64,000 nucleotides of DNA, taken from positions 217 to 64,216 of the forward strand of contig JAAYOM010000124.1 in NCBI GenBank assembly GCA_012520315.1, in the 5' to 3' direction. Below are positions 4,961 through 11,931 of the stretch, piece by piece. The notes beneath the pieces were generated by a model. The model was not told the DNA's origin, made no database searches, and saw only the letters and a list, made by a program, of their open reading frames with translations. The DNA comes from Bacillota bacterium. GTDB lineage: Bacteria; Bacillota; Limnochordia; Darwinibacteriales; Darwinibacteriaceae. Numbering within the stretch: the stretch's first letter is position 1; each line of letters begins with the position of its first letter. The translations under genes and the position numbers were made by a program.

Positions 4961-5578
4961 ATGAAAAGAAACTCTGGGGAGCGGACACTCCTCGCTTCTG
5001 TACTTCTCAGCTCACCGGGGCCGCTCGTGCTCGGTATCGCCCTTGTCTACGGCCGGTCATCTACCCAAATCGCTGACTTTATCAGGCGTACTGTAGAGCT
5101 TGGGGCAATCATTATATCCTGGATTGTTTTTCGGATGCTCCCCACAAGCAGCGAGCCTGACCCGTCCAGAAAAGCGAGGCTGGAAGCTCTCGCCAACACC
5201 TGTGTTGGTGCAGCTATGTTGCTTTCAGGGCTGGCGATGCTGTTTATAGCTGTCTTCTCGACGAGCCGAGATAAGGGAAATGTGATCCCAGGGCTGGCTA
5301 TTGCCTTCTTGGGAGTTATCGTGAATTTTTGGTTCTGGCTTCGCTACCGCAGGCTCAATCATGAACAGCCCAATGCCGTCCTCGAGGTGCAAAGCAGGCT
5401 TTACGGGGCGAAATTTGCCGTGGATACCTGTGTGGTCGTGGCACTATTGTTTGTAGCAGTTTTGCCCCACGCGCCCATTACCACTTATCTGGATGCGGGA
5501 GGTTCCATTGCTGTTGCACTCTACCTTGCCTGGAGCGGTATCAATACAATACGGAAGAGAGACATGGCCACCGAATAG
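4961..5578 (+). CDS. membrane protein resembling the transmembrane domain of cation-diffusion-facilitator transporters (no cytoplasmic C-terminal domain)
   Basis: 205 aa and about 6 TM. The layout ERTLLASVLL...STQIADFIRRTVE...LEVQSRLYGAKFAVDTC resembles the CDF TMD by eye. The assignment is weak. Confidence 0.35.
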   Translation: MKRNSGERTLLASVLLSSPGPLVLGIALVYGRSSTQIADFIRRTVELGAIIISWIVFRMLPTSSEPDPSRKARLEALANTCVGAAMLLSGLAMLFIAVFSTSRDKGNVIPGLAIAFLGVIVNFWFWLRYRRLNHEQPNAVLEVQSRLYGAKFAVDTCVVVALLFVAVLPHAPITTYLDAGGSIAVALYLAWSGINTIRKRDMATE

Positions 5579-5590
5579 GTGGTCTTTTTT
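5566..5590 (+). terminator. rho-independent terminator
   Basis: GGCCACC-gaata-GGTGGTC hairpin (one G-U pair) overlapping the stop codon, followed by TTTTTTA. Confidence 0.75.
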
Positions 5591-5617
5591 ATGCCCGGAA
5601 ACAAATCTGTTCGGAAA

Positions 5618-5659
5618 GTGATTTGGGTCACGGCAATTCTTTTGAGGTTAACCTATAAT
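5618..5659 (+). promoter_or_regulatory. pflB promoter: Crp/Fnr-type dyad GTGATttggGTCAC plus -10 TATAAT
   Basis: Perfect 5+5 inverted repeat with a 4-nt spacer at 5618-5631. TATAAT at 5654-5659. The dyad centre lies about 41.5 bp upstream of a start placed 7 nt after the -10. Confidence 0.6.
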
Positions 5660-5709
5660 GTAGTCGGAAAGCAATGGTGCAAGCCTTAAAGGATAGAAAG
5701 GTGATCAGT

Positions 5710-7989
5710 ATGAGGAAAGAGTTATTTGAACGGACAGAAATGGCAGCGGCCTGGAAAGGTTTTAAGCCAGGTAATTGGTCCTGTGGGATTGATGTACGGG
5801 ATTTCATCCAGCAGAACTATGAACCCTATGACGGTGATGCCAGCTTTCTTGAGGACGCCACCGAGAGGACCAAGGCTCTTTGGAATCAGGTGGATGATCT
5901 GATCCAGGAGGAAGTCCGCAGCCGTTCCATTTCTGTGGATCTGGAGCACTTTAGCGGAATTGACAACTTCCCTCCCGGTTACATCGATCGGGATCAGGAA
6001 CTAATTGTGGGACTGCAGACAGACGAACCGCTAAAACGCATGATCAATCCCTACGGCGGTGTCCGGATGGTTGAAAGTGCCCTTAAAGCCTATGGGCTCA
6101 GCATGGAGCCTGGCCTTATGGAAAAGTTTAATGAATACCGCAAGACTCACAACCAAGGGGTCTTTGACGCTTACACAAAGCAAATGAGGACTGTTCGTTC
6201 TGCAGGCCTGCTGACGGGCCTACCCGATGCGTACGGACGGGGCAGAATTATCGGCGACTATCGGCGAGTAGCCCTGTATGGAGTCGACTATCTCAAAGAG
6301 ATGAGACTCAAGGACAAGGAGAATTTTTCCGATGGCGCGACAGAAGAGGCAATTCGCCTGAGGGAAGAGTTTTCGGAACAGATCAGGGCTTTAGATCAGC
6401 TGAAGGCCATGGCCGCTCGCTACGGCGTTGATATAGGCAGACCGGCAAAAACGGCTCAAGAAGCGGTGCAATGGCTGTACTTCGGCTACTTGGCAGCAGT
6501 GAAGGAGAACAATGGGGCAGCAACAAGTTTTGGCAGAAATACCGCTTTCCTCGATATATACCTGCAGCGTGATCTTGAACTAGGGGTGATTGATGAAAAA
6601 ACAGCCCAGGAATTCATTGATCAGCTGGTGATCAAGCTGCGGATGGTGAGACATCTGCGCACTCCTGAGTACGATGAACTCTTCGCAGGCGACCCTACTT
6701 GGGTAACCGAGTCTATAGGAGGCGTAGGCGAAGATGGCAGGCATTTGGTAACTAAGACTGCCTATCGCTTCCTGCATACCCTGATAAACCTAGGAACCTC
6801 CCCAGAACCGAATATGACGGTGCTGTGGTCTAAACACCTGCCGCGGGAATTCAAAGAGTACTGCGCCGATATGAGCATTAAGACCGCTTCTATCCAATAC
6901 GAAAACGATGATCTAATGCGTCCGATTTATGGTGACGATTATGCTATTGCCTGTTGCGTCTCGGCAATGCGGGTTGGCAAAGAAATGCAGTTCTTCGGAG
7001 CCAGGGCAAATCTCGCTAAGGCGCTGCTGTATGCCATCAATGGCGGCAGAGATGAAATAGCTCGGGATAAGGAAACGGGAGAACCAATTACAGTCTTGCC
7101 CGGAATCGGGCAAAATGACCAGGAGATACTGGATTACGCTGCAGTCTGGGCGAGTTTTCAAGAGGTTATGGATCAGCTTGCCAAAATTTATGTAGAGACG
7201 ATGAATACCATCCACTACATGCATGACAAGTATGCCTACGAGGCGGGGCAGATGGCTTTGCACGATCCTAATGTGCATCGCTATATCGCCTTTGGCATTG
7301 CAGGCCTTTCCATAGTAGCAGACTCCCTCTCAGCGATTAAGTACGCCAAGGTTCGGCCCCTTAGAAATGAACATGGTTTGGCTGTCGGTTTTGAAACCGA
7401 AGGCACCTTCCCTCGCTATGGCAACGATGATGATCGGGTGGATCAAATAGCGATTGAAGTTAATCGCTACTTTATGGATGCACTGCGCAAAACCCCAGCT
7501 TATAGAGGGGCAGAGCACACTTTGTCCCTGCTTACGATCACAAGCAATGTGGCGTACGGCAAGAAAACGGGTGCTACCCCCGATGGCCGTAAGTATGGGG
7601 AGGCCTTTGCACCGGGTGCCAACCCCATGAACGGCGCCGACGAGTCTGGTGCCCTAGCATCCTTGAACTCGGTGGCCAAGCTTCCATTTCGAGACGTCAA
7701 CCAAGATGGGATTTCCAACACTTTTTCCATCATACCGGCTGCCCTAGGTAAAAACGACACAGAACGACTAATCAATCTCACCAATGTGCTTGACGGATAC
7801 TTTGGACAGGGAGCTTTTCACCTCAATGTCAATGTCATGGACAGGGAGCTGCTCCTAGATGCCATGGAACACCCAGAGCAGTATCCAAATCTGACGATTC
7901 GAGTTTCGGGCTATGCGGTACGATTTAACCAGCTGAGCAGGGAACATCAGCTTGATGTAATTAACCGCACATTCTTTGAGTTTGTCTAA
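5710..7989 (+). CDS. pflB: formate C-acetyltransferase (pyruvate formate-lyase)
   Basis: 759 aa from ATG 5710. C-terminal glycyl-radical motif RVSGYAVRF, active-site CC (IACCVSA), and overall PFL-like sequence. Confidence 0.95.
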
Positions 7990-8014: not shown

Positions 8015-9517
8015 ATGCGAGGCTATCTGCAGTCTATTGAGACGATGGGGCTGGTGGACGGACCGGGTACTAGAACAATTTTTTTCATGCAAGGCTGTCC
8101 TTTGCGCTGCGCCTACTGCCATAACCCAGATGCCATTAGGCTTCAGGGGGGAAGAGAAATCACCCCTGCGGAAGTTTTGGAAATCGCCAGGCGTTACAGA
8201 TCCTATTATGGTGAAGACGGGGGTGTGACCTTTTCTGGAGGCGAACCCTTGCTGCAGGGAGAGTTTCTTCACAAATCCTTGGAGCTTTTGAAGCAGGAAG
8301 GCTATAATACTTGTATAGACACCTCCGGGATCGGCAACCGTGCATTTTTTCCAGACATTTTTCCCCTGGTGGACACCTTGATTATTGATGTTAAGGCCTT
8401 TGATCAGGAGTCCTTTGCCAATCTTACGTTGACCAAGGGTTTTGGGGAGTACCTGGACTTTTTGGCCAGTCTGGAAAACTATGGTTTCCAGGGTCAAGTC
8501 TGGGCTCGTCATGTGATGGTTCCAGGTTGGACAGATAATGAGCAGTCTATGCGAGACTTCGTCCGGATCTTAAGGCCGATTTGTCACCGGATTGACCGCA
8601 TCGAAATTCTTCCGTACCATACGGCAGGTGTCGAGAAGTATCGCAAGCTAGGGATGTCCTATCGTTTGGAAGGAGTAGAGCCTATGGACAAAGATAGAGC
8701 TAAGGAACTGGAGATTTACGCGAACAAAGTCTTTGCCGAGGACTTGCAGCAGGAAAGGAAAAAGGCTCAGGCGCGAAGTGAAGAAAAGTACAAGATTCTC
8801 AGAGATCGCCAGGTGGTTTCCAAACAGGAACAAGCGGAAATGTTTGCCTCTTTGCGGGAGCTTCCTCTCTTGCGGGAAGTGGCAGAAGGAGATGTGGAAG
8901 CTGTACTTGACGAGATTATCCTGTCTAATATCAAAGCGGGGGATTATATCTTTCGGACTGGGGATGCGCCGGATCTGATGTACTTGATTTACCAAGGTGA
9001 AATGAAAATCTTCTATAACACCATTGACGGCGAAGAACAGATCTTTTATATCTACCGTGATGGAGACTTCGTGGGAGGGCTGAACCTCTTGGTAGAGACA
9101 CCCTACCGCTATGTTGGCCAAGCTCTGACGGATTGCAGGATCATTGCCATTCCTAAGGCTACTTTCGACAAGTACTTCTATGACTCTTCCGTCGTTTTGC
9201 GCAGCGTGTTGACTAAAAGCTTCGACCGAATCCGCTGGGCCGAAGAGCTGATTCAAAGGCTGGCAACCAGCAACGCTTCTATGAAGACGGCTGGTTTGCT
9301 CCTTAAGCTTGTGAAGAGAATTGGTGTGGAGACCGAAGAGGGCATAAGACTGGAACTTTCCATGAACAGGGAAGAACTGGGCAACTATTCAGGTCTTAGG
9401 CGGGAGACTATTACAAGAAAACTCGGGCAGTTTAAGGATCTAGGTTATATTGATTTGGTGGGCAATAAAGTTATCATCGTTAAAGATCTGGAAGCGTTAG
9501 AGGCATATGTCCTGTAA
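8015..9517 (+). CDS. pflA: pyruvate formate-lyase activating enzyme (radical SAM) fused to a Crp/Fnr-family cNMP-binding/HTH regulator domain
   Basis: GGAGGTG SD 9 nt before ATG 8015. N-terminal half has VDGPGTRTIFFMQGCPLRCAYCHNPD (CxxxCxxC), GGEPLL and PGWTD, and ends where E. coli PflA ends (about 8735). A charged linker follows, then IKAGDYIFRTGDAPDLMYLIYQGEMKIF (beta-roll) and REELGNYSGLRRETITRKLGQFKDLGYI (HTH). There is no stop codon or frame change between the two halves. Confidence 0.85.
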   Translation: MRGYLQSIETMGLVDGPGTRTIFFMQGCPLRCAYCHNPDAIRLQGGREITPAEVLEIARRYRSYYGEDGGVTFSGGEPLLQGEFLHKSLELLKQEGYNTCIDTSGIGNRAFFPDIFPLVDTLIIDVKAFDQESFANLTLTKGFGEYLDFLASLENYGFQGQVWARHVMVPGWTDNEQSMRDFVRILRPICHRIDRIEILPYHTAGVEKYRKLGMSYRLEGVEPMDKDRAKELEIYANKVFAEDLQQERKKAQARSEEKYKILRDRQVVSKQEQAEMFASLRELPLLREVAEGDVEAVLDEIILSNIKAGDYIFRTGDAPDLMYLIYQGEMKIFYNTIDGEEQIFYIYRDGDFVGGLNLLVETPYRYVGQALTDCRIIAIPKATFDKYFYDSSVVLRSVLTKSFDRIRWAEELIQRLATSNASMKTAGLLLKLVKRIGVETEEGIRLELSMNREELGNYSGLRRETITRKLGQFKDLGYIDLVGNKVIIVKDLEALEAYVL

Positions 9518-9538
9518 GATCATCTAACTTCGGGAAAA

Positions 9539-9587
9539 CTAAGGCACTCTCCGAAATCGGGGCGTGCCTTAGTCTTTTGTAGTTTTT
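9539..9587 (+). terminator. rho-independent terminator after the pflA fusion gene
   Basis: CTAAGGCAC-N16-GTGCCTTAG hairpin followed by TCTTTTGTAGTTTTT. Confidence 0.7.
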
Positions 9588-9595
9588 CGGGGAAC

Positions 9596-9637
9596 TTGAT
9601 CTAGATCATTTTTCCTGAACAGGACTGGTGCTACAAT
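9596..9637 (+). promoter_or_regulatory. FNR-type dyad TTGATctagATCAt plus extended -10 TGcTACAAT
   Basis: Dyad at 9596-9609. TG-n-TACAAT at 9629-9637. The dyad centre is about -41.5 relative to a start 7 nt after the -10. Confidence 0.6.
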
Positions 9638-11888: not shown

Positions 11889-11931
11889 TTGATCTGGATC
11901 AATGTTTCTTGGGCCAAGCTGGGAGATAATA
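11889..11931 (+). promoter_or_regulatory. perfect FNR-consensus dyad TTGATctggATCAA plus -10 (GATAAT/TAATAT)
   Basis: Dyad at 11889-11902. -10 candidates at 11924-11929 and 11926-11931. The dyad centre falls at about -40.5 to -42.5. Confidence 0.6.

Follow-up and report, generated by a model that had tools for sequence, protein, structure and literature searches.

A conserved CRP-type dyad in the pflB promoter of a Bacillota bacterium is most probably the operator of a PflA-fused Crp/Fnr regulator

The window, by which we mean the whole stretch of 64,000 nucleotides analyzed here from contig JAAYOM010000124.1 of a Bacillota bacterium (assembly GCA_012520315.1), carries a pflB gene on the plus strand (5710 to 7989). 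It encodes a formate C-acetyltransferase of 759 amino acids with PFL-like and Gly_radical domains, which scores 1159 bits against TIGR01255 (cut-off, 994). Its orthologues align from residue 1, in agreement with a start at 5710, and a Shine-Dalgarno sequence, AAAGGTGA, lies at 5697 to 5704 on the same strand. The stop codon of pflB is followed after 25 nt, with no terminator between the two genes, by a pflA-crp fusion (8015 to 9517, plus strand; 500 amino acids from the ATG at 8015). In the fusion protein, a radical-SAM PFL activase is joined to a cNMP-binding-like domain and a Crp-type helix-turn-helix (HTH), recognized as cNMP_binding and HTH_Crp_2 domains. A terminator-like hairpin with a T-rich tail follows at 9530 to 9590 on the plus strand (−28.3 kcal/mol, z = −4.7). 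Given the gene order, the 25-nt gap lacking a terminator, and the closing hairpin, the transcription unit therefore consists of the promoter, pflB, pflA::crp, and this terminator. On the upstream side lies a cation-efflux gene (4961 to 5578, Cation_efflux domain), whose intrinsic terminator is located at 5566 to 5592 on the plus strand. This terminator is a stem-loop at 5566 to 5584, with a 7-pair stem that includes 5 G-C pairs, followed by a T-run with the tail TTTTTTAT (−12.7 kcal/mol, z = −3.3). An earlier note on this DNA, made from the sequence alone, had placed a terminator hairpin at 5566 to 5590, and our analysis confirmed it.

Upstream of pflB is an inverted repeat, GTGATTTGGGTCAC (5618 to 5631, plus strand), which the earlier note had described as a Crp/Fnr-type dyad in front of a TATAAT hexamer at 5654 to 5659. 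We found both elements at these positions. However, the repeat had been called a perfect 5+5 palindrome, and it is perfect only as a 4+4 repeat, GTGA-N6-TCAC, of the CRP type. Written out, the site is GTGAT-N4-GTCAC: its fifth, inner pair is T/G, where GTGAT would pair with ATCAC. The promoter-proximal half-site is GTCAC in the clade of the window, and the perfect form, GTGAT-N4-ATCAC, occurs in distant relatives (Finegoldia and loci L019, L020, and L054). The geometry of GTGA-N6-TCAC fits the CRP-type arrangement (TGTGA-N6-TCACA) as well as the FNR-type arrangement (5-N4-5). On its 5′ side, the dyad is flanked by an A-rich stretch (5614 to 5617, plus strand), which is GAAA in the window and has the consensus aaAaA. 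On its 3′ side, a spacer of exactly 22 nt (5632 to 5653, plus strand) separates TCAC from the plus-strand −10 hexamer. The length of this spacer is conserved and its sequence is not, except for an invariant G at 5633, and the spacer has no −35 hexamer.

The pattern GTGA-N6-TCAC is found twice in the window, where 0.67 occurrences are expected, and at least two were found in 14 of 100 shuffles. In the 2.33-Mb genome there are 29 occurrences, with about 36 expected. Thus, the dyad alone, judged from one window, is not significant, and the signal lies in its conservation and its position. The second occurrence in the window (55607) falls inside an amidase-like ORF, and we rejected it as a chance match.

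The fusion is encoded in 25 loci, which belong to Bacillota MAGs from biogas reactors, Finegoldia magna, an Oscillospiraceae MAG, and a Tissierellaceae MAG. Of the related fusion loci, 22 include the 5′ end of pflB, and all of these have GTGA-N6-TCAC in front of the gene; five further fusion loci of the same class likewise had it. In total, the dyad and its promoter geometry were found in more than 30 species from at least four Bacillota lineages, including Finegoldia magna; because the loci are phylogenetically related, such counts overstate independence, and the independent units are about four to five lineages rather than 60. When the promoters were aligned on the dyad, the only conserved elements were aaAaA-GTGAT-nnnr-(G/A)TCAC-r-G-C-a and a −10-like hexamer at 22 nt. 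GTGAT and TCAC were invariant in all 28 unique promoters, with G as the first and C as the last base of the 14-mer. The flank, numbered relative to the dyad, had A at position −2 in 24 and at position 0 in 25 of the 28. Variable among the fusion loci were the sequence of the spacer, the genes upstream, the length of the 5′ untranslated region, and the distance from the dyad to the ATG, which ranges from 42 to 177 nt.

The 22-nt gap between TCAC and the −10 hexamer was found in 33 loci, which correspond to 26 to 28 unique promoters, and only one or two loci depart from it. The sole fusion locus with 21 nt between TCAC and TATAAT is L022 (genome G058), which has a run of eight T's in the spacer; the shorter length may be genuine or may stem from an assembly error. 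Another genome from the genus of the window (G065) has two copies of pflB, on contigs C72 and C121, with 80% identity to the PflB of the window. Each copy has its own dyad, a 22-nt spacer, and TATACT, and the pair could have arisen by duplication, or the MAG could combine more than one strain. The Finegoldia loci (L015 to L018, L024, and L025) have a second inverted repeat, TGATAAAAATTATCA, with a 5-N5-5 arrangement, about 19 nt upstream of the dyad.

The −10 hexamer is near consensus in the orthologous promoters: it is TATAAT in 15 of 26 unique promoters and TATACT, TACAAT, TAGAAT, or TATGCT in the others. None of the 26 has an extended −10 TG. In 25 of them, the best match to TTGACA at spacers of 16 to 18 nt was only 1 to 3 of 6 positions, which equals the random expectation. 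The sixth nucleotide after the hexamer is a pyrimidine and the seventh is a purine in all 28 unique promoters. A pyrimidine followed by a purine is the usual −1/+1 pair, and its location here is precisely the one that puts the dyad at −41.5. In the window, the predicted transcription start lies at 5665 to 5667 on the plus strand, with C5665 and G5666 as −1 and +1. If +1 is G5666, the seventh nucleotide after the hexamer, then the center of the dyad at 5624.5 is at −41.5, and the earlier calculation of about −41.5 for a start some 7 nt past the −10 element holds. A good −10 element, no −35 element, and a rigid distance to the dyad are together the signature of an activator-dependent class II promoter, by reasoning that is established for CRP and FNR. 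The invariant G at 5633, two bases past TCAC and at about −33, breaks the symmetry of the dyad in the 28 promoters. It coincides with the G of a TTGACA −35 element set at a 17-nt spacer and may be a residual sigma contact.

We also looked at RNA data around the predicted start. Metatranscriptome contigs barely cover the window, and none lies over 5560 to 5950. For Finegoldia, the pflB contig of one probable RNA run begins 19 nt downstream of the predicted +1 and leaves a gap over the promoter; contigs from other runs, the kind of which could only be guessed, span the promoter region. Metatranscriptome contigs of L007, a locus from a related digester organism, extend across the entire intergenic region and give no local depth values. 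The pflB region of this locus (L007:3300-4000, runs X58 to X61) reaches a contig depth of 22 to 265 in several independent anaerobic-digester metatranscriptomes. This depth is high, and the operon is strongly expressed in situ.

We next consider how specific the site is within genomes. With a position weight matrix (PWM) built from the orthologous sites, the window left out, the window dyad ranked first in the 2.33-Mb genome at 21.0 bits. The next matches, at 18.4 and 17.7 bits, lie in or beside coding sequence and have no −10 element at the right distance. The second-best match, AATAGTGATTTCACTCACTCTT (C92:10904-10925, 18.4 bits), has an FAD-dependent oxidoreductase-like gene on one side and a small basic ORF on the other. 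We rejected a larger regulon in this genome, with C92:10904, C52:7055, and C126:8998 as candidate members, as these sites are inside ORFs or lack a −10 element at the class II distance. We also looked for the composite pattern GTGAT-N4-RTCAC-N22-TANNNT in every one of the 95 genomes of the class, with the reversed pattern as a control. There were 37 matches, compared with 3 for the reversed control. Twenty-five of the 37 were directly 5′ of pflB in 24 genomes, one per copy of pflB, with no other match there. The other 12 were scattered, and their number is about that predicted by chance. Finegoldia magna DSM 20470, the Oscillospiraceae MAG, and the Tissierellaceae MAG each had exactly one match genome-wide, at pflB. 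A shared regulon among the matches outside pflB (L060 to L064) was rejected, since they have no downstream gene in common. One of them, L061 (G068:C314, minus strand), consists of GTGATCCGGATCAC, 22 nt, and TAGAGT; after another 70 nt comes a gene for a RIC/ScdA-like di-iron protein that begins MEALDKTQTLGDVVLSVPGADRVFRSYGVDFCCGG. The genome (G068) has no pflB, and a different Crp/Fnr regulator that reads GTGA may use L061 as a class II site.

The occurrence of the dyad follows the presence of the regulator gene. We found the dyad in 38 of 38 loci that have a pfl-linked regulator, and it was absent from 23 of 25 loci that have none. Among pflB loci of the same class without a linked regulator (about nine to ten, plus L023), the best upstream PWM score was ≤5.2 bits; in nine of these control loci the PflB proteins are 58 to 63% identical, the PflA is an ordinary unfused one, and there is no Crp gene. 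L023, the one locus with an unfused PflA among the related set, has no dyad. In the order of Finegoldia we examined 20 pflB loci. Thirteen of these have no linked regulator and scored ≤6.1 bits, and one fused locus scored 24.7 bits. Four loci in which a stand-alone Crp/Fnr gene directly follows pflA scored 12.2 to 24.2 bits, and in each a TATAAT-type hexamer follows the site after 22 (or 23) nt. Two loci, L072 (G142, AAATGTGAGTGAAATCACATTT) and L073 (G154, AATTGTGAGTGAAATCACAATT), keep the dyad (15.9 to 18.8 bits) with TATAAT 22 nt downstream, and in both the linked regulator gene is missing and a gap of 330 to 420 nt precedes the next gene. Their genomes contain only a 30 to 32% identical paralogue elsewhere, with the helix R-E-T-V-T-R. 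Thus, other Crp/Fnr proteins can in principle use such sites.

The stand-alone pfl-linked regulators (L068, L069, L071, and L078, from genomes G112, G165, G128, and G137) are proteins of 225 to 243 amino acids, whose genes directly follow an unfused pflA. In three of them, the N terminus carries an FNR-like Cys motif (e.g., C-x4-C-x2-C-x4-C), which the fusion does not have. In a maximum-likelihood tree, these regulators and the Crp halves of the fusions formed one clade (support, 100/99), with the other paralogues outside it and the stand-alone forms basal to the fused ones. The basal placement and the Cys motif in three of four stand-alone forms suggest that the fusion arose from a gene pair of pflA and a stand-alone regulator and lost the Cys cluster.

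The HTH of the fusion reads GLRRETITRKL, with RRETITR as the recognition helix. R-E-T/S-x-T-R is invariant in 34 orthologues of the fusion that are 45 to 96% identical, and this invariance parallels that of GTGA/TCAC in the promoters. The best match of the Crp half to a solved structure is Aliivibrio FNR (E = 1e−18), and in the phmmer alignment R-E-T-I-T-R lies over V-E-T-I-S-R of FNR (V208, E209, and R213). In an equal-length alignment to E. coli CRP (query 41 to 218, chain 28 to 205), the R, E, and R fall on R180, E181, and R185. In CRP, the GTGA core is read by these three residues, the first of which, an Arg, separates CRP-type from FNR-type specificity. The outer GTGA/TCAC bases had been proposed to fit the R-E-x-x-x-R helix of the fused regulator, and the alignment with CRP and the invariance among orthologues support this.

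We searched the genome of the window for other proteins that could bind the dyad. Only one other Crp/Fnr protein was found (contig C125), and it has an N-terminal Cys motif, MKCHCEHDRDSNC, and an FNR-type helix, TSETLSR; the genome is 88% complete, and a further paralogue could be missed. A third match to HTH_Crp_2 was set aside because it belongs to the GntR type. The 2.33-Mb genome has 10 perfect TTGAT-N4-ATCAA sites, where about 2 are expected; the positions in the window are 11889 to 11902 and 9596 to 9609. These sites make up a motif class of their own, which fits the C125 paralogue. This paralogue probably has an FNR-type regulon of its own, separate from the pflB dyad. The genome also encodes two Rex proteins.

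The pflB site can be compared with several known systems. E. coli class II CRP promoters, such as galP1 with TGTGA-N6-TCACA at −41.5, share with it the GTGA-N6-TCAC core, the A-rich 5′ flank, the 22 nt between TCAC and the −10 element that give the −41.5 geometry, and the lack of a usable −35 element. The R-E-x-x-x-R triad is likewise common to CRP and the helix of the fusion. Compared with the CRP box, however, the pflB sites keep the core but not the outer T/A, and A precedes GTGA in 25 of 28. Moreover, E. coli CRP is a global cAMP receptor, whereas the pfl regulator appears to have a single target per genome, is encoded in its own operon, and is fused to a radical-SAM enzyme.

The pfl promoters of E. 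coli have FNR class II sites (TTGAT-N4-ATCAA). FNR class II promoters share with the present site the target pflB, an anaerobic physiology, the regulator family, and the position predicted for the site. However, the half-site at pflB starts with G and not with T in 28 of 28 unique promoters, and the dyad is not an FNR box. In addition, the fusion has Arg at the position of Val208 and no N-terminal Cys cluster of the FNR type, and the genome of the window has a separate FNR-type paralogue with TTGAT-N4-ATCAA sites of its own. The dyad had been assigned to the FNR/CRP type of site; the CRP-type GTGA half-sites agree with this, but the FNR-type TTGA does not apply.

The Fnr site of Bacillus and Paenibacillus is TGTGA-N6-TCACA (bioRxiv 10.1101/2020.01.03.894683). 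That protein is also a Bacillota Crp/Fnr regulator that reads a CRP-type GTGA core and controls anaerobic genes. However, Bacillus Fnr stands alone, has its cluster at the C terminus, and controls many genes, whereas the pfl regulator appears dedicated to pflB and is either fused to PflA or, in relatives, a stand-alone protein with an N-terminal Cys motif. A further comparison is with Rex, which acts at pflB of Staphylococcus aureus and has the operator consensus TTGTGAA-W4-TTCACAA (PMC2883068). The Rex operator there and the pflB dyad share the GTGA/TCAC core, a 4-nt center, and the location in a pflB promoter. However, the consensus of the dyad has neither the outer TT/AA, nor the A/T at position 7, nor the A/T-rich center of a Rex operator. 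The dyad also tracks the Crp/Fnr gene and not Rex, and Rex is a repressor at promoters with normal −35 and −10 elements. Two control loci with an unfused pflA, L041 and L042, have Rex-like boxes, TTGTGAAcgcgTTCACAG and TTGTGAActctTTCACAG, about 240 to 260 nt upstream of pflB, followed by GTTAACAAAAnnGTTAC. These canonical Rex-like boxes scored ≤3.7 bits on the PWM of the site, and same-class pflB genes without a linked regulator may be under Rex control.

Taken together, the dyad is a genuine, strongly conserved cis-element. We propose that its most probable role is that of the sole operator of the pfl-linked, PflA-fused Crp/Fnr regulator, in class II activation of pflB-pflA::crp. The dyad has the features of a class II Crp/Fnr site, namely, two-fold symmetry, the absence of a −35 element beneath it, and a cognate protein with a matching helix. 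A class II operator tied to the fused regulator was also the reading of the earlier note, and the conservation, the 22-nt spacing, the control loci, and the helix all favor it. A dimer of the fusion would bind the two GTGA/TCAC half-sites through its R-E-T-I-T-R helix. With transcription starting near G5666, the bound site would be centered at about −41.5, over the place of the absent −35 element, and the regulator would recruit RNA polymerase to the −10-only promoter and switch on pflB-pflA::crp. The outcome would be a positive autoregulatory loop with a single target. In this proposal, the binding by the protein, the position of the start, and the nature of the sensed signal are inferred from sequence, and activation rather than repression is the direction to which the promoter architecture points.

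The same protein at the same site could instead act as an autorepressor that blocks RNA polymerase at the −35 region until a signal releases it. The site does overlap that region, and many local regulators encoded in their own operons are repressors. However, a promoter that has neither a −35 nor an extended −10 element in 25 of 26 unique orthologues would be weak unaided. The distance of 22 nt is also fixed in more than 30 species despite a variable spacer, which is typical of activators that touch RNA polymerase and would be needless for a steric repressor. It is established, moreover, that Crp/Fnr sites at −41.5 activate. We therefore regard autorepression as unlikely.

It is also conceivable that the dyad belongs to a different protein, either one of the two Rex redox repressors or another Crp/Fnr paralogue. 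Rex is encoded twice in the genome, its boxes share the GTGA/TCAC core, and it binds the pflB promoter in S. aureus (PMC2883068). However, the consensus aaAGTGAT-N4-GTCACrGC differs from the Rex operator in each half-site (positions 1, 2, and 7), the 4 nt at its center are not rich in A/T, and the canonical Rex-like boxes of L041 and L042 match the PWM poorly, as given above. These differences make Rex an unlikely binder. Another paralogue would find some support in L072 and L073, which retain the dyad without a linked regulator and encode a different R-E-x-x-x-R protein, and in the incompleteness of the genome at 88%. Against this, no Crp/Fnr protein other than the fusion and the C125 paralogue was found, and the latter has a helix of the FNR type and TTGAT-N4-ATCAA sites of its own. 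Either version must also account for the fact that the dyad goes with the linked regulator in every one of the 38 loci that have it and is missing from 23 of the 25 that do not. Overall, we consider a different binder distinctly unlikely. Finally, a functionless chance palindrome, which would fit the lack of over-representation of the 4+4 repeat in the window and the genome, is already refuted in practice by the conservation data, as 10 specified bases and the 22-nt spacing are invariant in 28 unique promoters with fully diverged flanks and the composite of dyad, 22 nt, and −10 element is the only match in each fusion genome.

If the fused regulator does act at the dyad, its PflA half may have a role in sensing. 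The FNR-like N-terminal Cys motif is found in stand-alone relatives and is absent from the fusion, and this led us to the idea that the PflA domain may have replaced the sensor of the regulator. We tentatively suggest, as a possibility and not as our expectation, that the fusion is a "trigger enzyme," that is, an FNR-like pfl regulator that exchanged its Cys-cluster sensor for the [4Fe-4S]/SAM radical-SAM domain of PflA, so that the state of the activase would control binding to the dyad. The controlling state could lie in an intact cluster, in the binding of SAM, or in engagement with PflB that is not yet activated. If this were true, oxygen or the need for PFL activation would directly tune the transcription of pflB-pflA, and the dyad at 5618 to 5631 would be the read-out of a sensor of enzyme state.

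As a CRP-type class II site, the dyad is of a familiar kind. The new part is apparently the partner and the logic: a dedicated, self-encoded, enzyme-fused regulator with one target. We found no relevant paper on the fusion or its site, and NCBIfam has no model that describes the fusion. In databases the protein is called only "PflA," and the dyad provides a defined, conserved, and apparently unique DNA target for it. The site thereby makes the C-terminal Crp half a testable regulator, with one operator, one operon, and positive feedback. Since the system is present in the culturable Finegoldia magna and in abundant anaerobic-digester fermenters with a strongly transcribed pflB, it is directly testable. 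At one end of the comparative series are stand-alone regulators that have an FNR-like Cys motif, next comes the PflA-fused form, and at the other end are loci in which the regulator is lost and the site is kept. This series suggests that an enzyme domain may have taken the place of the sensor in an oxygen-sensing regulator.
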